Part shown: positions 6,796 to 63,328 of the stretch, piece by piece
Layout of the letters: each line of letters opens with the position of its first letter
Position numbering within the stretch: position 1 is the stretch's first letter
DNA from: Anaerolineae bacterium
GTDB lineage: Bacteria; Chloroflexota; Anaerolineae; Epilineales; JAHCIE01
NCBI GenBank assembly: GCA_039810085.1
Contig: JBDHWG010000002.1
Coordinates: 2,273-66,272 of the forward strand
DNA length: 64,000 nucleotides
Direction of reading: 5' to 3'
Made by a program: the position numbers and the translations under genes
Notes under the pieces: model-generated
Database searches by the model: none
Seen by the model: only the letters and a program-made list of their open reading frames with translations
Told to the model about the DNA's origin: nothing

Positions 6796-7638
6796 CTACA
6801 GCGTCGCCAGCACGTAGTAGGCGATGTCGCGCCAGCGCGTATTCTCGGCTTCTCCCTCGCGCCGTAGCCCACGGCCCAGGTAGGCCCCGTCGCTGACCTG
6901 CACTAACTCCTCAAGATCGAGGCAGCGTTCGTCGGCCGGCACATCCGAGTGGTCCAGGCAGAGAACGCGTCGCCCGGAGCGCGGACTATTTCCCCACGAG
7001 ACACGCACCGGATAGATACGCACCACGTCGGCGGGAGCTCGCTCGCGCCCTTCCCCACCGGACTGACGAGCGGGATCGGCGGGCGCGCTATGGGCGAAGA
7101 TGTGCTCGGCGCGTAGCGCGCCTGGATCGACCAGCACGCCCCACCACGTGGCCCTCATCTTGTGCAGCAAACTATCGGGGGGAAGCTCGGGAGCGACAGC
7201 CAGGACATAGCCGCGCAGCAAACCGTAGGGGGCCGGCTCGGGCGCGGGTAGACTTTCCAACAAGCTTTCCAGATGGACCAGCCGGTGGCTCGCGCCCGGT
7301 TCTGTCCCCACGCCGATGACGAGCAGCGTCTCGACAATGGAGGCGCGGGCGATGACCGACTCGCGCGCCAGCAGCGTCGTATCCACCTCGACGCGCGTCC
7401 CCGCCAGGGCGCGAACAGCGGCTAACTGCCGCGCCACCTCGCGCCACTCCGCCAGCCCTTCCCAGGCCGAGGCATACGTCGCGTGCCGGACGCGCTGGAA
7501 GCGAGCCTGGGCCAGCCAGTATGCGCTGACTGTGCCGGGCGCTTCCGCGTGGGCATGCTCCAGCGCGGCCACCGCTTCATCCCAGCGCCCATCATCTAGC
7601 AGGCTCAGGCCCGCTTCCAATCTGTCGCTACCCCTCAT
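6796..7638 (-). CDS. Hypothetical cytoplasmic protein, last gene of the DUF4331 operon
   Basis: Track ORF 6796..8100 trimmed to ATG 7638 (MRGSDRLEAGLSLLDDGRWDEAV..), 23 nt after the stop of the upstream transporter. I recognise no family. Confidence 0.55.
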   Translation of the reverse strand: MRGSDRLEAGLSLLDDGRWDEAVAALEHAHAEAPGTVSAYWLAQARFQRVRHATYASAWEGLAEWREVARQLAAVRALAGTRVEVDTTLLARESVIARASIVETLLVIGVGTEPGASHRLVHLESLLESLPAPEPAPYGLLRGYVLAVAPELPPDSLLHKMRATWWGVLVDPGALRAEHIFAHSAPADPARQSGGEGRERAPADVVRIYPVRVSWGNSPRSGRRVLCLDHSDVPADERCLDLEELVQVSDGAYLGRGLRREGEAENTRWRDIAYYVLATL

Positions 7639-7661
7639 GCCATCCTCGCTCGACGTCGGTG

Positions 7662-9362
7662 TTAGAGATTCAGCATCGCCAGGACGGTCGGCCCGTGCCA
7701 CACACCCACCTGTGAAAGCGCCTGGAGTGTAATCGCCAAGCCGACGAGGGTAATGATCGCCGCACTGATGGCGGGCATGACACGCAGGAGCGGCCCTCCG
7801 AAGCGACGCTGCTCCACAAACCGACCTGCATAGACGAGCGCCAGGCCGATGGCGACGAGAACACTCGCCAGACCGAAGCTGAAAGCCACAATCAGCAGCA
7901 GGCCGAAGCCGACGCGGTGCAGCGAGATGGCGCTCAAGAGGACGACGAGGGCCGACGGGCACGGCAGCAGACCGCCCGACACACCAAGGGCCAGCAGGCT
8001 GCGCCACGTCACCGGGCGACCGTCGTCGCCGGGGACATGGCTGTGCGTGTGCCCATCCGGACCGTGGCTGTGGGTCATCCACCCCGTCATCCGCCCCCAC
8101 ATCGAGCTTACATGGTGGCGCTCGTGGGTGTGGTCATGCACGTGGTCGTGGTCGTGATGGTGGTCATGGGAGTGGTCGTGCCCGTGCGGGTGCTCGTGGT
8201 CATGGTGGTGGTCATGCATGTCGCTGTGATGATGGTGGTCATGATCATGCAGATGCGGATGGTCATGCTCGTGGTCGTGCTGATGATGGACGTGGCCGTA
8301 ATCCTGGGCGGGTCTCATTGCGCTGCGCAGCCGAGTCACGACGAGGCTCGCGCCAATGGCGACCACCAGCAGTCCCGAAGCCACACTCAGCCAGGGATAG
8401 AGCTGCTCCGGCAGGATGTACTGCTGCGCGTAGAGAGTTACGAGGCCGAGGGCAAACACGCCCGCCGTGTGCGTCACCGTCACCGTCAGGCCCAGGAAGA
8501 TGGCGTGCCGCCACGTCCCACGCGAGCCGACCAGGTAGGCTCCCACCATCGTCTTGCCGTGGCCCGGCGACAGCGCATGCACCGCGCCCAGGCCAAACGC
8601 CGCCAGCAACGACAGGAGAATGACGGCCACGCTCAGCTCGCGCTGGCTCACCAGGTCGGCGAAGGCGTCGTTGGCGCGGGGTATCCCGGCGGTGGCCGAT
8701 GCCGCTGTCGCCGCGCCACTCCCGGCGCCGGTGACGGTATACGCAACCGTCGCCTCGCGCATGTTGAGTGGGCTGGTGAGCATGTCTTGCGGGTAGGCGA
8801 GCAACTCGTTGCTCATGTCCTCGGTGTGCCCTGTCGTCTGATCGATGCGCACGTCGCCATTAGAAGCAACCACAATCTCGCTCCAGCCGAGGCGGTCGGG
8901 ATAGTTGCCGTCGCGGTAGGCCAGCGGCCCGGGGCGGCTGACGGGCGCTTCGAACCACACGCTCAGGCGCAACGTCTTCAGGTCACCTTGCCCAACCGGA
9001 AAGGTCAGCTCATGCGACGCGGGTTGGAGGGCGAGAGGAACGCCATCGATGGACAGGGAGAGATGGCTGCGCAGTTCCTCGATCTTGCGCGCGGCATACG
9101 CCTCCCGCTCGACGTCACTCAACTGGCCGTCGCCGCTTCCATCGACCTTTGGCAGTTCCTGGAACGTCGGAATCTCGGCCATGTCGAGGATGTACTTCAC
9201 GCGCACGCGGTCGGGCGCTAGCTCCAGGCGGCTGTAGCGGTTGGTGGTGAAGTTGCCCAGCGGGTGCGCCGCCGCGATGAGGGGCTGCGCCATCGCCGCG
9301 AACAGCGACACGAGCACGGCGGCCGCGATGAAAAGCGACAGTCGGCGGCGCAAGACTGGCAT
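7662..9362 (-). CDS. NicO/RcnA-like nickel/cobalt transporter with an N-terminal extracytoplasmic domain and a long His/Asp-rich loop
   Basis: Contains HALSPGHGKT and LLPCPSALVVLLSA, motifs typical of the NicO/RcnA family. A loop of about 60 aa reads HVHHQHDHEHDHPHLHDHDHHHHSDMHDHHHDHEHPHGHDHSHDHHHDHDHVHDH. Start chosen at MPVLRRRLSLFIAAAVL (signal-like). The alternative start at 9524 overlaps the upstream stop as ATGA. Confidence 0.7.
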   Translation of the reverse strand: MPVLRRRLSLFIAAAVLVSLFAAMAQPLIAAAHPLGNFTTNRYSRLELAPDRVRVKYILDMAEIPTFQELPKVDGSGDGQLSDVEREAYAARKIEELRSHLSLSIDGVPLALQPASHELTFPVGQGDLKTLRLSVWFEAPVSRPGPLAYRDGNYPDRLGWSEIVVASNGDVRIDQTTGHTEDMSNELLAYPQDMLTSPLNMREATVAYTVTGAGSGAATAASATAGIPRANDAFADLVSQRELSVAVILLSLLAAFGLGAVHALSPGHGKTMVGAYLVGSRGTWRHAIFLGLTVTVTHTAGVFALGLVTLYAQQYILPEQLYPWLSVASGLLVVAIGASLVVTRLRSAMRPAQDYGHVHHQHDHEHDHPHLHDHDHHHHSDMHDHHHDHEHPHGHDHSHDHHHDHDHVHDHTHERHHVSSMWGRMTGWMTHSHGPDGHTHSHVPGDDGRPVTWRSLLALGVSGGLLPCPSALVVLLSAISLHRVGFGLLLIVAFSFGLASVLVAIGLALVYAGRFVEQRRFGGPLLRVMPAISAAIITLVGLAITLQALSQVGVWHGPTVLAMLNL

Positions 9363-9520
9363 TGCGAGCAATCTCTTGGGGCTGCGGGTTTTGGGAATTG
9401 CCCGACGAGGTGTCTGTCGGCGTGACTTGTGTGGGGCGGGCAATTCCCAAAAGGGACGGTACTCCGCCTCCGCTGGCGAAGCAATCCCTTGCCCTTTCGA
9501 TATTAGCATCAGGCTAGACA

Positions 9521-10885
9521 TCATGAGCCTTTCCTCTCGTCGCCAGATTTGGCCGTGCGCAGACTGTCCAGGGTCTTCTGCGCGGATGGCGCTTGCAAGA
9601 TAGAGAAGTGCGGGTTGATTTCCAGCCCCCGCGCCAGGTACGTCTCAGCCTGAGCCGAGTCGCCGTTCGCCAGCGCAATCATGCCCGCGTGGTAGACCAT
9701 CAGGGCGTCGCGCGTTCCCAGCCGCAGCGCCTGCTGCATCATTCGCTGCGCCTCGGCCGGTTGCCCCGCTTTGAGCAGCGTCCAGGCGAGAACATCCGCG
9801 CCATGAACGCTGGGGCGGTCGGCATAGCCCTGCCGCGCGCGGGCGAGGGCGTTCGGCAAGTCGTGGTCGTGGTCGGCGTCGAACAGAGCTGTTTCCAGGT
9901 CCATCTCGACGCCGTTCGCCTTATAGAGCTGCTGGATAGCGCGCACAAGGTCGTACTGCTGTGCGGCTTCCGCGTCGCGGCCAGCCGCCGTGTAGGCGTC
10001 GCCGAGCAAGATGACGTACTCTGGCATCGGCATCGTGTCCACCGCCTGGCGGAGGATGGCGATGGCGTCGTCCCACTGACCCCGCGCCGCCAGGACGCGC
10101 GCCTGCCCAACGCGCGCCGGTACGTAGCCGGGATAGTGCGTCAGGGCGTTGCGAAACAAACTGTCCGCTGGCTCGAGCTGGCCCTGGTTGAAGTACAGCA
10201 GGCCAAGCTGGACCGTGGCCCAGGCGGTGTTCTCCGCGTTCGGGCCGCCCGAAACGATGGCCTGCTGCATCGCCTCGATAGCGCCAGGTATGTCGCCATG
10301 CAACTCGCGGACATACGAGACGCGGGAGTATGAGCTAAGGTCGGGGCGCTGGTTCACCATCGTCTGAATCGCGTCGCCCGCCTGGGCGTATTCGCCCAAC
10401 TCCACGTGCGCGTCGCCCAGGACGCCGTAGGTGTACGCCCGGTCCGGGCTGATGGCCCGCGCCTTTTCGCCCCACTGTAGCGCCTCGCGGAACTGGTGGC
10501 GCGACAGGGCCAGCGACCCCATGAAGCCGAGGGCGTCGATGTCCGAGGAGTTGCGGGCGAGCGCCTGCTTCAGCACGGCCTCGGCGCGGCCGTAGTACGA
10601 CGGGTCGCCGGTCTCGCGCGCCTTCTGTAAGTAGGCGCCGCCCAGTTGCGTCAGCGCGCGGGCATCGTCGGGCTGCTGCTTGAGGCGCGCCTGGAACCGA
10701 GCGATCGTGCTATCAGTATCCATCGCCCACACGCCCGCGTCGGCCACAACTGCCGCTGCCGTATCCTCGCGGCCGAGCCACCGTTGAGCGAGCGTCAGCA
10801 AGCGTCGCCCGTCAACCATCGTCGCCACCAGCAGGACAACGAGCGCAGCGAGAACAATCCGAACCGGAAGTGATATCCTGGACAT
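9521..10885 (-). CDS. Membrane-anchored tetratricopeptide (TPR) repeat protein
   Basis: Start at ATG 10885 (GAGGA upstream): MSRISLPVRIVLAALVVLLVATMV. Repeated Ala/Tyr/Gly-Leu TPR-like units follow throughout. Confidence 0.75.
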   Translation of the reverse strand: MSRISLPVRIVLAALVVLLVATMVDGRRLLTLAQRWLGREDTAAAVVADAGVWAMDTDSTIARFQARLKQQPDDARALTQLGGAYLQKARETGDPSYYGRAEAVLKQALARNSSDIDALGFMGSLALSRHQFREALQWGEKARAISPDRAYTYGVLGDAHVELGEYAQAGDAIQTMVNQRPDLSSYSRVSYVRELHGDIPGAIEAMQQAIVSGGPNAENTAWATVQLGLLYFNQGQLEPADSLFRNALTHYPGYVPARVGQARVLAARGQWDDAIAILRQAVDTMPMPEYVILLGDAYTAAGRDAEAAQQYDLVRAIQQLYKANGVEMDLETALFDADHDHDLPNALARARQGYADRPSVHGADVLAWTLLKAGQPAEAQRMMQQALRLGTRDALMVYHAGMIALANGDSAQAETYLARGLEINPHFSILQAPSAQKTLDSLRTAKSGDERKGS

Positions 10886-26178: not shown

Positions 26179-26703
26179 CTACAGAAGCTTATAGAAGATA
26201 ACTGTCGGGTCGAAGCTGCCGTCGGCGTTGCGGGCGTAGCCGGGGATGCTGCCGAGACGCGTGTAGTCCATCCGCTCGTAGAGCATCTCGGCCGCGTCGC
26301 CCTCCCGCGTGTCGAGGAAGAGGAGCGTCTTGCCCTCGGCGCGCGCCGCATCCTCGACCTGGGTCATGAGCGCCCGCGCGATTCCCTGGCGGCGGCAGGC
26401 CGAGTGAACCAGGAGCTTCTGGACCTCGGCGCGGTGCGCGCCGTTGGGCCGCGTCTCCAACCCTAGCGCGACCGTACCGACGATGCGACCATCGCGCCGT
26501 GCCGTGAGCAGCAGCCGCTCGCCTGCGGGCACCTGCTCGAGGGCCTTGACCCAGTAGCGCCACGCCTCATCGTAGGTCAGGGGCGGCAGGAAGCCGACAG
26601 ACGCGCCGTTGTCGACGCTGTCCCGTAACACGGCAATCAGCTCGTCAATGTCCGCCAGCCCTTGCTCGCGGCTTACGCGTTCGATGACAAGTGGCGCGTC
26701 CAT
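26179..26703 (-). CDS. GNAT family N-acetyltransferase
   Basis: Track ORF trimmed to ATG 26703 (MDAPLVIERV..). Acetyl-CoA motif ACRRQGIARALM. Confidence 0.8.
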   Translation of the reverse strand: MDAPLVIERVSREQGLADIDELIAVLRDSVDNGASVGFLPPLTYDEAWRYWVKALEQVPAGERLLLTARRDGRIVGTVALGLETRPNGAHRAEVQKLLVHSACRRQGIARALMTQVEDAARAEGKTLLFLDTREGDAAEMLYERMDYTRLGSIPGYARNADGSFDPTVIFYKLL

Positions 26704-26713
26704 TGTCTTATTC

Positions 26714-27391
26714 TCACTCCGCGCGGTCAGTAGCGACGGTCGGCTGCTCGCCGAGGAACTCGTACCACTTGGCCTTGGCGCAGGGGTAGTGCTTGGCCGC
26801 CTCGACCAGATCCATGAACGCCACGATGCTCTGCTCGAAGCGGTCGGCGAGCTGCGGGTTGGCAATGCGCCCCTCGGCGTCGAACGCCTGGTGCGCCTGT
26901 GCCAGGGAGAACATCTCCGGGAAAACGCGCGCGCCCAGGTGCTCCAGGGGAACGCGCAGCGCCCACAGGCCGCGGTTGCCGCCGACCATCGACGGCGAGG
27001 CCGACAACAGCATACCGTGCCGGCCGCTAAACGGCTGCGGCTTGGCGCGCGATACCCAGTCGATGGCGTTCTTGAGGACGCCGGGCATCGAGGCATTGTA
27101 TTCTGGCGAGGCGATGACAAAGGCATCATTCGCCTCCAACCGCCTGCGGAACGCCTGCGTACCGGACGGCAGGCCCGCGCTGTTCTCCACGTCTTGGTCG
27201 AATGAGGGGGCATCGAAGTCGGCCATCGAGGCGAAATCGACGATCCCGCCGTGCCGCTCGATCACCTGCGCCGCGAGGCGGGCCAGGCGGACATTCAACG
27301 AATCGTCGCGCAGGGATGCGCCGAATACAAGAAACCGCACCGTCTCACGCGATTGTACACCATTCGAATTATCGGGCCACGCTGACATCAT
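26714..27391 (-). CDS. NADPH-dependent FMN reductase family protein
   Basis: VRFLVFGASLRDDSLNVRLA.., SPEYNASMPGVLKNAIDW. Start at ATGATG 27391 after GGAGG. Confidence 0.8.
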   Translation of the reverse strand: MMSAWPDNSNGVQSRETVRFLVFGASLRDDSLNVRLARLAAQVIERHGGIVDFASMADFDAPSFDQDVENSAGLPSGTQAFRRRLEANDAFVIASPEYNASMPGVLKNAIDWVSRAKPQPFSGRHGMLLSASPSMVGGNRGLWALRVPLEHLGARVFPEMFSLAQAHQAFDAEGRIANPQLADRFEQSIVAFMDLVEAAKHYPCAKAKWYEFLGEQPTVATDRAE

Positions 27392-27529: not shown

Positions 27530-28126
27530 TTACTGTAATGAGTACGGCATTGGAAGCCGAAGGTATGAGCCATCCGAGAGGCGCTGGAACTTGTAGAAGA
27601 TATGTCGCTGCTTGCGGTCTGAGATATAGATGAAGCCGTCTTTAGGGGTATGCCGTTCGAGGGGCGCGTCGAGCATGACGAGGATGCCAAACTCACTGCC
27701 GTCGGGTGCGACAATGCTCACCGTCTGGCCGTCAGGCGTCACCGTGAGGGTGCTGCCATTCGGAATGTCCTCGGCCAACGGCAGCAGCTTCTGCTCAATT
27801 TCAGCTTTGAAATCCGGCCACGCCAAGAAGTCGGCGCACCCGTTCTTCGACTCCTGCGCGCACATCCCCGGCCCGCGAGTCTTGTAGGCCGGATACCAGC
27901 GCACCAGTTCCGGCGTCGGGAGCAAGGAGCCTTTGCTCGGGCCAATGCGCGGCTGGGCCGCGACGCCGGTCAAGGCCATCACCGTAACCAGGAAGAGCAA
28001 GATCAGGGAGACCTGGGTCTCCCTTGATCCCCAACTCAGCTTCGTACCCGTCGCCGCGCTCTCCTGGCCCGAAGCCTGCCCGTCCAGGACGGCCGCTGCC
28101 TGCACATGAGTCTCGCGCACTAACAT
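27530..28126 (-). CDS. Hypothetical membrane-anchored/secreted protein
   Basis: Start at ATG 28126 (GGAGAG upstream). One TM segment, VSLILLFLVTVMALTGVAA. The 3' half is visibly lower in GC, with an AT-rich upstream region at 28130..28210. I recognise no family. Confidence 0.5.
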   Translation of the reverse strand: MLVRETHVQAAAVLDGQASGQESAATGTKLSWGSRETQVSLILLFLVTVMALTGVAAQPRIGPSKGSLLPTPELVRWYPAYKTRGPGMCAQESKNGCADFLAWPDFKAEIEQKLLPLAEDIPNGSTLTVTPDGQTVSIVAPDGSEFGILVMLDAPLERHTPKDGFIYISDRKQRHIFYKFQRLSDGSYLRLPMPYSLQ

Positions 28127-28262
28127 CCAACTCTCCACTGCGAAAACTATGCGATATAATGACCTAACGGTATCTTCAAGTGACGTGAAGATTATAGTTA
28201 TCGAGGCAGAATAGGAGAAACACACTGGGCGCGGGAAGCCAGGCGGAGCGAAGCATGACGAC

Positions 28263-29264
28263 CTAGACTCGTGCTCCGCCCAGGTCCACCGCTGTCCCGA
28301 CGTTGGTGGCGAGGGCCTTGAGGTAGATGTGATAGCCAGCCGCCAGGTCCTCGACGGCCAGGCCGAGCGACTTGAACAGGGTGATGTCCGAGGGACGCTG
28401 GCGCCCCTCGACACGCCCGATGAGCAGGTCGCCCAATTCGCCCTGGATGTGGCTGTCGTCCACCGCCCCCTCGCGCTTCGGAAACAGGAAGTCACCCGCT
28501 TCATGGAGCGCCGACTCGCGGCGGTCCACGTACATCCGCGACCGGGCAACGGCCTGGGTATCCAGCTCACGGGCAAAGGGAACGCTCGACCCGACGGCGT
28601 TGACGTGGGCGCCTTCCGCGATCCACTCGCCCTTCAGCACCGGCGCCGTCGCCGAGGTCACGGTGCAGATGAGGTCGGCCCCGTCTACGGCGCCCTGCGC
28701 CGTCTCCACCACCTCGATCTCGACGGTGTGGCGCTCACTCTCCCGCGCGGCGAACTCCCGCGCATTCTCCTCGGTGCGGCTCCAGACGCGGATGCGGCGG
28801 ATGGGCCGGACGTTCAACATCGCGGCCAGGTGCGTCTGGGCCTGGACGCCGGAGCCGAGGATCGCCAGGTCGCCCGCATCCTCCCGCGCCAGGGCGCGCG
28901 TCGCCACGCCGGTGACGGCTGCCGTCCGAATAGCGGTGATGGCCGAGGCGTCGATAATCGCCAGGGGCCGCCCGTGGTTCGTCTCGAACAGCATGACCGC
29001 GCCCTGGTGTGAGTCGTACGGCGTGTCGCGGTTGCCGGGGAAGACGCTCACGACTTTCAGCCCCATGATGGACGGCTCGCCGCCAAGGTAGGCCGGCATC
29101 ATGCCCAGCGCGCCGATGCGGTCGGGCAGCCACATCACGGGACGTAGCGGTAGGATCGCGTCGCCCCGCGCCAACGTTTGCAGCGCGTCAGCCATGACCT
29201 CGATGGCGTCCGACATGGGGAGAAGCGCAGCCACCTCCATCCCGTTGATGACCAGAACGTTCAT
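28263..29264 (-). CDS. Ornithine cyclodeaminase / mu-crystallin family protein
   Basis: MNVLVINGMEVAALLPMSDAIEVM.., Rossmann motif ILGSGVQA. Trimmed to ATG 29264. Confidence 0.85.
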   Translation of the reverse strand: MNVLVINGMEVAALLPMSDAIEVMADALQTLARGDAILPLRPVMWLPDRIGALGMMPAYLGGEPSIMGLKVVSVFPGNRDTPYDSHQGAVMLFETNHGRPLAIIDASAITAIRTAAVTGVATRALAREDAGDLAILGSGVQAQTHLAAMLNVRPIRRIRVWSRTEENAREFAARESERHTVEIEVVETAQGAVDGADLICTVTSATAPVLKGEWIAEGAHVNAVGSSVPFARELDTQAVARSRMYVDRRESALHEAGDFLFPKREGAVDDSHIQGELGDLLIGRVEGRQRPSDITLFKSLGLAVEDLAAGYHIYLKALATNVGTAVDLGGARV

Positions 29265-58848: not shown

Positions 58849-59724
58849 TCACTCGGCCAGGATGGTCACATCAAGCTGGCTCAGGCGCGCTGGCTCAGCG
58901 AGCAAATCGATTCTGACGATCTTGCCATCCATAATCGTGAAACTGAATACAACACGCGGCTGCCCGCCCGGCGCCCAGACGGCTGCCGCTTCCCCATCCA
59001 CAAGCGCCGGCTTCGCAACCCTGGCGCGCCCGACGAAGGTCACGGCGACGGATGTTGCACCCCGTACCTCTCTGTCTGCGCCCGCCTGCACGGCTGTCTC
59101 GTCAGCGTAGAGGACGACATCGGGGTCGAGCAGGGCAAGAAGCGCGTCGAAATCCCCGTCGCGCGACGCCGCCAGGAAGGCATCGACAATCGCGCGACGC
59201 CGGATGAGATCGACGTTACGACCCTCAGATGCTCCCCGCACCCGACTGCGGGCGCGGCTGGCAAGCTTCCGCGCGGCGGTTGGTGAGCGTCCGACGAGAG
59301 GGGCAATCTCCTCAAACGGCATGGCGAAGACATCGTGCAGCACGAACGCCAGGCGCTCGGCAGGAGTCAGCGTATCGAGCATCACAAGCAGCGCCAGCCC
59401 GACCGAGTCGGCCACCTCAGCTTCGTGTTCTGGGTCGCCCCGGTCTGCGTGGGTCGCCCTCGATTCGGGTACGCCCGCGTCCAGCGCCTCCTCGCGCTTC
59501 GACGTGCGCAAGCGCAGCATGTCCAGGCACACCCGCGCGACAACCGTCGTCAGCCAGCCGCGCAAGTTCTGCACGTCGCTTGTGTCCGAGCGGCTGAGGC
59601 GAAGCCAGGCTTCCTGAACAGCGTCATCGGCCTCGCTCGATGAGCCGAGCATCCGGTAGGCTACGGCCCACAGGTGGGCGCGGTTCGCCTCGAAACCCTC
59701 CGCCAGCAAATCTTGTTCGGTCAT
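58849..59724 (-). CDS. ECF-type sigma-70 factor with a C-terminal SnoaL-like extension (ECF41/SigJ-like)
   Basis: Region 2 (AYRMLGSSSEADDAVQEAWLRL), region 4 (ERLAFVLHDVFAMPFEEIAPLVGRSPTAARKLASRAR) and a C-terminal extension of about 100 aa. Confidence 0.85.
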   Translation of the reverse strand: MTEQDLLAEGFEANRAHLWAVAYRMLGSSSEADDAVQEAWLRLSRSDTSDVQNLRGWLTTVVARVCLDMLRLRTSKREEALDAGVPESRATHADRGDPEHEAEVADSVGLALLVMLDTLTPAERLAFVLHDVFAMPFEEIAPLVGRSPTAARKLASRARSRVRGASEGRNVDLIRRRAIVDAFLAASRDGDFDALLALLDPDVVLYADETAVQAGADREVRGATSVAVTFVGRARVAKPALVDGEAAAVWAPGGQPRVVFSFTIMDGKIVRIDLLAEPARLSQLDVTILAE

Positions 59725-61308: not shown

Positions 61309-63039
61309 CTAGAACAAGCGCGGTTTGCGGCGCCGCCGCGCAACAACGAAGGCGAGAATGCCAGCCGCGAATGCAAGAATACCCAGCAGGACGGTAAACC
61401 CCACAAGGTCTTCCCCAGCCCAGCCCAGGAAGGGATAATACCAGCGCGCCGACAGAAACGATCTACCCTCAGCCTCCCATGCTTGAATAAACGCGGGCAG
61501 TGCCAGCACGCTCAGGCTCACCGTGAGCGACGCGAAAATGACCGAGAAAGCCAGGGCCAGTTCCCCGAGCCGCTGCGACTCGAGCTGCAGCAGCATCTCG
61601 TGGTCACGCGCGAGCAGGGCCTGCAAATCCCCCAGGTTTGCTTCCGCATGATCCAGGATATCGGTAATTCCTGACTGGCTCAAAAGTAACTCGAACTTCC
61701 CAGTGGCATAGGGAGCATAAGCAATCAGATGTGGCGTGGTGATCGTGCGAAGATAAGCGATATACCGGGAGATATTAGCGACCCTCTCATTCATGCGTCC
61801 TAAACTCTTCTTGTCCAGATCGTGATTATCGCCCAGCAACGGGATCGCTTCGGAAAGGTAGTGCGCAGCAATCTGCTCGACCACTTGCGCAAGCAGGCGG
61901 GTTTCGACGCTGAATTCGATACCCCGCGCGATGGTGTCCCAGTATTCCGCATGGGAGATATACCCGGAAGGGAAGATCACCTTCGTTTCCTTCGGGGTAT
62001 ATCGATAGATGAGCGCGCTTGGTCCCGTGAAGACGCATATCTCGTTCTCCCACGTGGATTGATTCCGACTCACAATCGCGCGGGCATAGTCAAGGGAGTG
62101 TGTAGGATAGTAGTACGTGCTTTTGCCTTCGAGAATAACCCCTTCCAACAGACCGGAGATAGTTTGGGCATACTCATCGCACGCGATTGTACTCGGACTC
62201 AGGATGTTCCTCGTCTTCGTGTCGAAGTCATAGTCTCCAATTTCAAAGAAGTGGTATAACGTCAGTTCCTCTCTCAGAACACCCAATGTGCCGCCGGAGG
62301 GGAATGGCGTTAATTCCAGGGAGAATTGGAGATTTTGCGCAGTTGAGTGGAGCCGGAAGGCGCATGCTTCCCCAAACTGCCGCATGACCTCGGCTGCCAT
62401 CTGCCAGAGAACAGGCGGCGACTCCCGCTCGATATCGGCCATGGAATGCTGAGACGACCACTGCATGAATTGATGAATAGAGGCAATGCGTTCGAGCGCC
62501 CCTATACTCTGGCCGTCAGCTTCTAGCTCACGTAGCTTCCGACGAGCGCTCTCTATGTCGAAATGTCCTTGTAGGCCAATCACATCCCGTGAGATGTCGA
62601 TGAGCTTCTTTGGTTTCGCGATATCGAGGCACAGGATGAGCGTGACGATGCCATTGCTGCACAACCGAATCCAGAAGTCCCATTTCCTCCATAATTTAAG
62701 GAACTTGTCCTTGAACTGAACGTTGTGTTCCAATTCTTTCGGGAAGTGCACCTTGTTCTTGTTCAATCGATAGGTTGGAGCAAACCGATCTTCCGCCAGG
62801 ATTCTGTTGAACACCCCGATCTCGTAGCCCCGGTGCTCGGTCTCGACATAGCAGTCGTCCCTCGTAAAGCGAGGATCATTGAGGCGCCATTGTCTCAAGA
62901 ACTCGTCGAAGCGTGCATGGCAGCGCAGCCGCATGAGAGTCTCTTGAGAATCACTGGCAACGAAGGCGGACAGATCAAAAGCAAGAATAACAAAAACCTT
63001 CCCTCGAGCATCGAGATCTTGTTCCAGCCGCCGTGTCAT
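61309..63039 (-). CDS. Hypothetical protein with a large soluble N-terminal region, a coiled-coil stalk and two C-terminal TM helices; low-GC gene
   Basis: 576-aa uninterrupted ORF in DNA much less GC-rich than its flanks. C-terminus LALAFSVIFASLTVSLSVLALPAF .. LVGFTVLLGILAFAAGILAFVVARRRRKPRLF. I recognise no family. Confidence 0.6.
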   Translation of the reverse strand: MTRRLEQDLDARGKVFVILAFDLSAFVASDSQETLMRLRCHARFDEFLRQWRLNDPRFTRDDCYVETEHRGYEIGVFNRILAEDRFAPTYRLNKNKVHFPKELEHNVQFKDKFLKLWRKWDFWIRLCSNGIVTLILCLDIAKPKKLIDISRDVIGLQGHFDIESARRKLRELEADGQSIGALERIASIHQFMQWSSQHSMADIERESPPVLWQMAAEVMRQFGEACAFRLHSTAQNLQFSLELTPFPSGGTLGVLREELTLYHFFEIGDYDFDTKTRNILSPSTIACDEYAQTISGLLEGVILEGKSTYYYPTHSLDYARAIVSRNQSTWENEICVFTGPSALIYRYTPKETKVIFPSGYISHAEYWDTIARGIEFSVETRLLAQVVEQIAAHYLSEAIPLLGDNHDLDKKSLGRMNERVANISRYIAYLRTITTPHLIAYAPYATGKFELLLSQSGITDILDHAEANLGDLQALLARDHEMLLQLESQRLGELALAFSVIFASLTVSLSVLALPAFIQAWEAEGRSFLSARWYYPFLGWAGEDLVGFTVLLGILAFAAGILAFVVARRRRKPRLF

Positions 63040-63328
63040 AGCCCCTCCAGCAACTCAGGTGGGCGGTTGCTCGGTGCCCTGCATGTCGATTCGCCCGCCC
63101 TGCGATCCTTCTGGCCTTCCACAAGACAGGCGTGATTCTACCATAGCACACGTTGACAGACAAACCGACGCCGAGACTCTTTGACATGACGCCCCTATGG
63201 TATACTAATGCCAGGACTTGAGCTGCCTCCGTCGGTGATCCCTGACTTTGCGCACGTAAGAAGATGGTCTATTCCAGCACTAGAAAGTAGTCAACTCCAC
63301 GACCGGTTCTCTTCGAAAGGAGATTGGG

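Follow-up and report, generated by a model that had tools for sequence, protein, structure and literature searches.

The 64,000-nucleotide stretch of Anaerolineae DNA analysed here (contig JBDHWG010000002.1, positions 2,273 to 66,272; hereafter the window) carries on its minus strand, at 61309–63039, a complete open reading frame (ORF) whose 576-residue product ends in ...ARRRRKPRLF. A gene for a MOSC-domain protein lies downstream of the ORF, and a gene for an AhpC/TSA (Bcp-type) peroxiredoxin, bcp, is divergent across a shared intergenic region of 289 bp. The neighbours of the ORF are, overall, genes for redox and accessory enzymes and for regulators. An initial annotation had placed the 576-residue frame at exactly this position, between a MOSC gene and bcp, and had described it as a horizontally acquired orphan of CorA-like architecture with a possible function in defence. 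Position and flanks are confirmed. In our reading, the ORF encodes a horizontally acquired, GMN-less, CorA-like channel that is gated by a ligand or an ion and serves ion or osmotic homeostasis; taken as a whole, we regard this reading as evenly poised.

Hydropathy analysis identifies only two strongly hydrophobic segments in the ORF product, at residues 491–520 and 543–569. The segment 458–494 is acidic, with 8 Asp or Glu residues against 2 Lys or Arg, and the basic C-terminal tail recurs among family members. These features bear out the layout originally proposed: a soluble domain, a stalk, two C-terminal transmembrane (TM) helices and a basic tail. A confident AlphaFold (AF2) model was built on an alignment of 52 sequences, with a predicted local distance difference test (pLDDT) of 90.7 and a predicted template-modelling score (pTM) of 0.84; all AF2 models are monomers. 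In this model, an alpha/beta region spans residues 1 to ~360. Its first part, residues 1–285, is conserved family-wide, including in the fusions to STAND NTPases described below. A first model, derived from 13 sequences, was poor in its C-terminal half (pLDDT 64.8) and gave uninformative Foldseek searches (best E=0.14); it was superseded by the 52-sequence model. The features of the ORF and its product are collected in Table 1.

Table 1. The CorA-like ORF, the segments of its product and the promoter candidate (positions in the window).
Feature	Position	Strand	Description and basis
Complete ORF, member of the CorA-like family	61309..63039	(-)	576 residues; ATG start; stop codon 61309-61311; ORF list
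Residues 1-285, family-specific alpha/beta cytoplasmic region, no fold assignment	62185..63039	(-)	AF2 pLDDT mostly 85-98
Residues 286-457, second cytoplasmic part	61669..62184	(-)	Beta-strands 333-362, then helices 363-403, 410-433 and 443-456 in the AF2 model
Residues 458-521, acidic stalk continuous with TM1 (~491-521)	61477..61668	(-)	Single 66-residue helix; AF2 helix 458-523
Residues 514-517, family motif L-P-(S/A)-F	61489-61500	(-)	Within TM1
Residues 522-539, outer loop EAEGRSFLSARWYYPFLG	61423..61476	(-)	Position of the CorA YGMNF...MPEL loop
Residues 540-567, TM2	61339..61422	(-)	Hydropathy peak 2.68 at 543-569; AF2 helix 535-575
Residues 568-576, poly-basic cytoplasmic tail RRRRKPRLF	61312..61338	(-)	Sequence
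Sigma-70-like promoter candidate, TTGTCT-17-TAGAAT with TG extension	63135..63163	(-)	~96 nt before the ATG, within the intergenic region that separates the ORF from bcp; consensus scan

In Foldseek searches of the PDB with the 52-sequence model, the top 14 matches are all CorA, Mrs2 or ZntB (best E=6.8e-3, probability 0.98), and the alignments to CorA and Mrs2 cover 245–283 columns. The isolated soluble domains of ZntB and E. coli CorA are also among the matches, with E values of 0.09–0.15. The matches have template-modelling scores (TM-scores) of 0.13–0.30 and root-mean-square deviations of 12–19 Å, and none of them reaches E<=1e-3. In the viral library, the top match is a phage CorA-type 'Mg2+ transporter'. 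Judged from the model, residues 286–457 probably correspond, weakly and at the level of the fold, to the cytoplasmic helices of CorA that pack on the stalk.

Profile comparisons locate the relationship to CorA in the C-terminal module. Aligned with hhalign to a profile of 31 genuine CorA sequences, the family profile matches over 77 columns with a score of 43.3 (P=8.5e-5), and the stalk, TM1, the loop and TM2 of the two families are placed in register. Two reversed profiles used as controls scored 20.6 and 24.6, and 30 local shuffles reached 24.4 at most; the C-terminal half alone matches CorA with P=3e-5. A single E. coli CorA sequence gave no significant hhalign match to the family (probability 2%), so a profile of CorA is needed. 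With HMMER, the family profile aligns to residues 262–343 of Thermotoga maritima CorA (TmCorA) in the homologous register, at E~0.3. The register of TM1, loop and TM2 is consistent across three independent methods. The proposal of a CorA-like architecture that lacks the GMN motif is thus sustained by the PDB matches and by HMMER and hhalign registers above the controls, and the unit formed by stalk, TM1, loop, TM2 and basic tail is very likely homologous, though remotely, to the pore module of CorA.

The cytoplasmic domain resembles that of CorA at the level of the fold at best, and hhalign detects no similarity to CorA in residues 1–285. The possibility of an internal duplication was also considered and rejected, as a comparison of the N-terminal with the C-terminal half gave no hhalign signal.

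CorA is the textbook prokaryotic Mg2+ channel. Its GMN motif is described as 'universally conserved' and forms the selectivity filter (PMC3629940), and a GxN motif is described for CorA orthologues (PMC9276622). Neither GMN nor GxN is present in the ORF product, which is therefore not a Mg2+/Co2+ CorA. In the hhalign register, the Gly, Met and Asn of CorA fall on A523, E524 and G525, in columns that are unconserved among the 52 relatives. The MPEL motif is absent from the outer loop EAEGRSFLSARWYYPFLG, where W-Y-Y-P recalls the W-x-W-G-Y-P of CorA. What the family conserves is L-P-S-F-x-x-D at the outer end of TM1, with P515 present in 46, S516 in 48, F517 in 47 and D520 in 47 of the 52 members. 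Few parts of the family are conserved as well as TM1 and its outer end.

No significant match to the ORF product was found among Pfam, NCBIfam and PADLOC models or, with phmmer, among PDB sequences, and the Pfam CorA model (PF01544) does not match it at E<=10. The same model stays below threshold in 3 of the 52 members (best 5.3e-4), exceeds it in none and gives no match in P0013, P0015 or P0017. A word-indexed protein search nevertheless returned 12 relatives with 37–54% identity, and an exhaustive HMMER search returned 173 cluster representatives at E<=1e-3, 30 of them at E<=1e-30. The family hidden Markov model covers the full unit, residues ~6–574 of the ORF product, which is conserved across most relatives. 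The description of the protein as an orphan therefore stands as far as curated models and PDB sequences are concerned, but not in view of these relatives. The ORF product belongs to an uncharacterised protein family that lacks a curated model and is centred on Chloroflexota.

The named relatives come from Caldilineaceae, Ardenticatenales and metagenome-assembled genomes labelled 'Chloroflexi bacterium'. Close relatives occur in only 2 of 185,579 species-representative genomes, a metagenome scan for related loci yielded three, and none was found among 2.9 million viral contigs. One relative, P0013, bears the NCBI name 'CorA family divalent cation transporter', a label that is probably misleading. 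It sits on the C-terminal fragment of a split homologue from 'Chloroflexi bacterium TSY' (GCA_019217005.1).

This homologue (L005 9437–11161 and L006 59–1783) is divided into frames of 186 and 386 residues by an in-frame TAG, from CAG to TAG at a conserved Gln, where the family reads SVRQFM and this copy SVQ*FM. The split is identical across two independent samples.

About ten homologous neighbourhoods were examined, as the initial annotation had proposed, and MscS and/or Castor/RCK channels recur in four of them; no other neighbours of the relatives recur. The L010 cluster comprises MscS, a 237-residue protein and the CorA-like gene, whose product is here 54% identical to that of the ORF. At L016 (43%), the CorA-like gene follows two MscS genes and is followed by an RCK channel and a further MscS. 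At L012 (36%), a Castor/RCK channel, two MscS genes and a 289-residue protein precede it, and at L018, equivalent to L019 (36%), three MscS genes and a small protein do so. In each of these clusters, the genes lie on a single strand with gaps of 16–270 nt.

Between the four loci, the CorA-like proteins share 37–49% identity, the MscS partners 28–47% and the RCK partners 53%, and the gene order is rearranged. A neighbour-joining tree places MscS-linked members in each of its three clades, the two basal ones included. Low identity, rearranged order and spread over all clades form the pattern expected of a functional linkage rather than of residual synteny. MscS and RCK channels of the Castor/Pollux-MthK type are gated, oligomeric inner-membrane channels that serve ion and osmotic adjustment.

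In three loci (L010 5058–5771, L012 9092–9961 and L018 ~9171–9944), the last MscS gene is separated from the CorA-like gene by one for a small membrane protein of 237–289 residues that matches no Pfam or PADLOC model. The copies at L012 and L018 share 24% identity, and that at L010 has no detectable similarity to either.

The remaining neighbourhoods are diverse. An AfsR/SARP regulator lies upstream of the CorA-like gene at L008, RidA and rpmB flank the nonsense-split copy at L005, and a transposase is found nearby at L007. A divergent TPR gene accompanies the homologue of L014 (Ardenticatenales), where a BREX/GmrSD-type cluster lies 3–10 kb off. This defence-type cluster (L014 12070–21755, past uvrC) comprises a DEAD/ResIII helicase, an AAA_15/AAA_21 ATPase, a GmrSD_N (DUF262-type) protein and two BrxC/BrxD-like genes. 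At L015, a 25%-identical member is set among the housekeeping genes dnaB–dnaD/dnaC; the adjoining gene (7302–9878) encodes the replicative helicase DnaB with an intein that contains a LAGLIDADG homing-endonuclease domain.

Neither a Mg2+ riboswitch nor any other Rfam element was detected at E<=1 in the region upstream of the ORF, nor, at Rfam gathering scores, ahead of the CorA-like gene at eight homologous loci. The only match in those loci is an Acido-Lenti-1 RNA above its gathering score (L017 538–583, minus strand; 44.5 bits, E=1.7e-6), ~2.5 kb upstream of a homologue and on the opposite strand.

The composition of the ORF sets it apart from the rest of the window. Its GC content is 54.1%, compared with 64.4% for the window as a whole, and among sliding windows of 1731 nt (mean 64.6%, standard deviation 2.6%) it is the minimum, about 4 standard deviations under the mean. 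An estimate by eye in the initial annotation, about 50% against about 65–70%, was right in direction and significance but slightly overstated the gap. GC at third codon positions is 0.646 in the ORF and 0.74–0.89 in the credible genes of the window, and the values for first and second positions are likewise below those of these genes. The codons AAA, AAT, TTT and ATA, already remarked on as frequent, are each enriched two- to threefold: per 1000 codons, the counts are 10.4 against 3.5 for AAA, 12.2 against 5.5 for AAT, 15.6 against 5.7 for TTT, and 5.2 against 2.0 for ATA. TTA, GAA and TAT are enriched 4–6 times. The synonymous-codon fit of the ORF to the other genes of the window gives z=-2.5, so that windowed GC and codon statistics both confirm the anomaly.

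This anomaly is limited to the 64% GC host. The relatives live in Chloroflexota genomes of 48–58% GC and match the composition of their own flanks (homologue/flank values of 0.479/0.485, 0.554/0.553 and 0.572/0.578); one homologue lies slightly under its flanks (0.49/0.54). Such a pattern would be expected if the gene had come from a relative of lower GC and had since ameliorated in part, and it supports the single-gene horizontal acquisition suggested by the initial annotation. A cold-shock gene immediately past the end of the window encodes a protein that clusters at >=90% identity with proteins of Anaerolineae metagenome-assembled genomes, in keeping with an Anaerolineae host. We consider it likely that the Anaerolineae host acquired the ORF horizontally, and we infer that the gene came alone from a lower-GC Chloroflexota relative and was inserted between bcp and the MOSC/PNPOx pair.

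The identical protein, with no nucleotide differences and in the same context of bcp, CorA-like gene, MOSC and PNPOx, is present on four other metagenome contigs from four different samples. The sole allelic variant found (L020 215–1945, sample ERZ27299005) has two nucleotide differences, both nonsynonymous (W51C and S324R); with two differences, a dN/dS ratio is uninformative.

By analogy with CorA, we propose that the ORF product forms a funnel-shaped, probably pentameric assembly. Its cytoplasmic domain would sense an intracellular ligand or ion, and the movement of this sensor domain, relayed through the stalk, would open a pore lined by the Ser/Thr-rich TM1. The protein would then act as a conditional release channel for cations or solutes in ion or osmotic homeostasis. 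A channel function is, on this analogy, fairly probable. The MscS/RCK clusters in relatives from all three clades make ion or osmotic homeostasis the most likely role, and we favour such a role over defence only tentatively.

Several observations weigh against this reading. Every similarity to CorA is weak, with Foldseek TM-scores of only ~0.25 and no single search significant database-wide, and hhalign finds nothing in the sequence of the ~450 cytoplasmic residues that resembles CorA. The linkage to MscS and RCK is missing from the window, as judged by tblastn, and from L005, L007, L008, L014 and L015. The insertion site lacks the hallmarks of mobile elements: no integrase, transposase or recombinase was found among the flanking genes, no tRNA in the 64-kb window, and no meaningful direct repeats in the flanks of the ORF, where only short repeats at chance level occur. 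This agrees with the initial annotation, which had noted the absence of partner genes, integrase and tRNA in the window. Finally, the ORF product has Ala at S516 and D520, the two best-conserved residues of the pore mouth, and may for this reason work differently or not at all. The STAND fusions and a PADLOC match discussed below count on the same side.

Four alternatives to this reading were considered. The two alanines invite the explanation that the ORF is a decaying passenger, an intact frame for an inactive remnant that has lost its channel partners and key residues of the pore mouth. The protein departs from 4 of 39 positions conserved family-wide, the highest fraction among the first 16 alignment rows tabulated, there are no MscS or RCK partners in the window, and elsewhere a nonsense codon already interrupts a related copy; the only variant allele has two nonsynonymous and no synonymous changes, which are far too few to interpret. 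Yet the full-length frame of 576 residues is kept, the four other contigs carry it unchanged, and the majority of the conserved core residues are retained, including W367, E299/G300, P312, W330/E333/C335, R372/E375, N468, P515 and F517. The root-to-tip distance is ordinary (0.82, compared with 0.75–0.84), so most deviations reflect the early-branching position of the ORF product. An interpretation as a fast-evolving copy, based on an 18% deviation at conserved columns, was largely withdrawn when the tree gave this distance and this branching position. Decay is, in our estimate, improbable. The low TM-scores and the lack of sequence relation between the cytoplasmic 450 residues and CorA would also be compatible with a protein that is not a channel, in which the two C-terminal helices anchor a cytoplasmic enzymatic or signalling domain and the likeness to CorA is that of any long helices. 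The invariant polar cluster of E299, H314, E333, C335, R372 and E375 could then be a catalytic or ligand site. Against a mere anchor, all 14 top PDB matches are to the CorA family, entries with only the soluble domain included; TM1, loop and TM2 align in one register by three independent methods; the strong conservation of TM1 and its outer end would be unusual in a passive anchor; and no enzymatic Pfam domain occurs in the 52 members. We therefore hold this alternative to be very improbable. An ordinary divalent-cation transporter of the CorA family, importing or exporting Mg2+, Co2+, Ni2+ or Zn2+, would accord with the NCBI name of P0013 and with the structural matches to CorA, ZntB and Mrs2. 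It is, however, highly improbable: the GMN/GxN and MPEL motifs are absent and the aligned GMN columns unconserved, no member reaches the Pfam CorA threshold, no Mg2+ riboswitch or other Rfam element lies upstream here or at the eight homologous loci, the protein has ~250 extra residues, and a close relative in 2 of 185,579 species-representative genomes is ill-suited to a housekeeping function.

A fourth explanation takes up the idea of a defence or abortive-infection effector, which the initial annotation had raised as pure inference. The ORF product would then be a sensor and pore in one stand-alone protein, collapsing the membrane potential upon phage infection, and would be comparable to the SAM-AMP-activated CRISPR-associated CorA or to membrane effectors in STAND/NLR-like systems. 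Of the 162 relatives collected, ~20 (975–1090 residues) carry an N-terminal extension of 350–385 residues before the complete module, and signatures of STAND-type P-loop NTPases (AAA_16, AAA_22, NACHT, NPHP3_N and ATPase_2) were found in 11 of the 11 fusions scanned. P0121 (513 residues) consists of an nSTAND1 NTPase (Pfam E=4.6e-96) that continues directly into the stalk, TM1 and TM2 alone; this latter part is 40% identical to residues 471–574 of the ORF product, far closer than the rest of the class to which P0121 belongs, and reflects either recent domain shuffling or chimeric assembly. The PADLOC model for CRISPR-associated CorA-like proteins (PDLC01043) weakly matches 10 of the 52 members (best 1.7e-4), among them P0037, at 8.5e-4 in the stalk/TM region; PDLC01174 matches two, and no other defence model recurs among the 52. 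The sporadic distribution, the horizontal transfer, the nearby transposases, the nonsense-split copy and the BREX/GmrSD-type cluster near the homologue of L014 point in the same direction. STAND NTPases, however, double as ordinary signal transducers, and a STAND NTPase domain is absent from the ORF product (Pfam) and its neighbours, being confined to the ~20 distant fusions and the regulator of L008. A role of this L008 neighbour as a defence NLR was ruled out by its Trans_reg_C and BTAD domains, which identify it as an AfsR/SARP transcription regulator. The ORF product has no PADLOC match even at E<=10, its neighbours in the window include no defence genes, and no relatives occur on the 2.9 million viral contigs. 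No cas, cyclase or nuclease partner was found in any neighbourhood examined, and the recurrent partners are ion channels; MscS, RCK and the small partner proteins match no PADLOC-DB v2 model. Precedent for the defence explanation is found in an antiviral effector opened by SAM-AMP, a divergent CorA whose N-terminal domain is unique (PMC10600005), and nSTAND1 was defined in conflict systems (PMC8195603). For the protein of the window we consider this explanation unlikely. A defence role is not supported for this clade; for the wider family, a role in conflict is possible.

A broader version of the conflict idea would concern the family as a whole. Its members would form a new class of pore effectors that derive from CorA and can be operated by NTPases of the STAND/NLR type, the solo copies would be self-contained, ligand-gated channels for dormancy or death, and MscS and RCK would belong to the same permeabilising arsenal. 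We regard this as distinctly unlikely. If true, the fusions of ~1000 residues, with the NTPase oligomerised by a ligand, would assemble or open a CorA-like channel and represent a bacterial counterpart of the NLR 'resistosome'. The solo copies would be used in conflict or programmed cell death of filamentous Chloroflexota, and the MscS and RCK channels would not be housekeeping ones.

Beyond the CRISPR-associated CorA effector, little is known to us of CorA-derived pores that lack GMN and have new cytoplasmic sensor domains. The family is probably a second, independent example of a GMN-less CorA-derived pore with a new sensor domain. Its conserved, operon-like clustering with MscS and RCK hints that several channels of Chloroflexota work together in osmotic or ionic release, and the STAND NTPase fusions, which contain the entire module, hint at a pore that can be switched. 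Either lead, if true, would widen the functional range known for the CorA scaffold.

Other features of the window concern the expression and surroundings of the ORF. The consensus scan that returned the promoter candidate saw 2 sites where 1.7 are expected, and the candidate alone is not significant. On the minus strand, no terminator-like site was found in the interval from the ORF to the MOSC gene that follows it. Neither observation is statistically compelling. An 18-nt inverted repeat with 89% complementarity and a spacer of 11 nt falls within the coding sequence of the ORF (61957–62003) and also registers, on the plus (antisense) strand, as a weak terminator-like site.

Downstream of the ORF, a gene for a sigma factor of the extracytoplasmic function type (58849–59724, minus strand) with a C-terminal SnoaL_2 domain and SigJ-like architecture sits among small redox and accessory genes, which encode MarR, GNAT, two PNPOx-like, glyoxalase and MOSC proteins. 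Elsewhere in the window, the long ORFs at 26179–27213 and 27530–28576, both on the minus strand, have a higher GC content at second than at first codon positions, and their codon fit is the poorest of any in the window. Their longest-ORF frames may be wrong, or they may be genuine genes of odd composition.

The sole structural neighbours found in the PDB for the ORF product are CorA, Mrs2 and ZntB (MIT superfamily, '2-TM-GxN', PF01544). It shares with them a cytoplasmic domain ahead of a very long stalk helix that runs into TM1, a short loop, TM2 and a basic tail. Further likenesses to T. maritima CorA are a Pro-containing motif in TM1, MPLTF there and LP(S/A)F here, and a C-terminus, ...YFKKKKWL, to which the RRRRKPRLF tail is positionally equivalent; a W..YP motif ahead of TM2 is also shared with CorA. 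The ORF product differs from CorA in the lack of GMN/GxN and MPEL, in remaining below the Pfam threshold and in being ~250 residues longer. The family also differs in its rare and patchy distribution, in having MscS and RCK rather than metal-homeostasis genes as neighbours, and in the absence of a Mg2+ riboswitch.

The CRISPR type III-associated CorA effector of Bacteroides fragilis likewise combines a divergent CorA-type C-terminal stalk/TM module with a large N-terminal soluble domain. There, CorA is recognisable only in about the last 170 residues, and the N-terminal domain, of unique fold, is thought to bind the ligand and open the pore (PMC10600005). In contrast to that system, no CRISPR-Cas, NrN/DEDD phosphodiesterase or SAM lyase genes are found in the window flanks or in the ~10 neighbourhoods, the ORF product itself is missed by the PADLOC model, and the phyla are different.

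With the STAND/NLR-like systems (Avs, bNACHT and nSTAND; PMC8195603), the likeness lies in the ~20 distant members that pair a STAND NTPase with the complete module, whereas the window protein and all its close relatives lack an NTPase domain. Literature searches turned up no account of STAND proteins with a CorA-like output, nor of a CorA-like/MscS cluster. The MscS and Castor/Pollux-MthK-type RCK channels, to which the family has no relation in sequence or fold, are its genomic partners in four loci, where their genes are co-oriented with the CorA-like gene.

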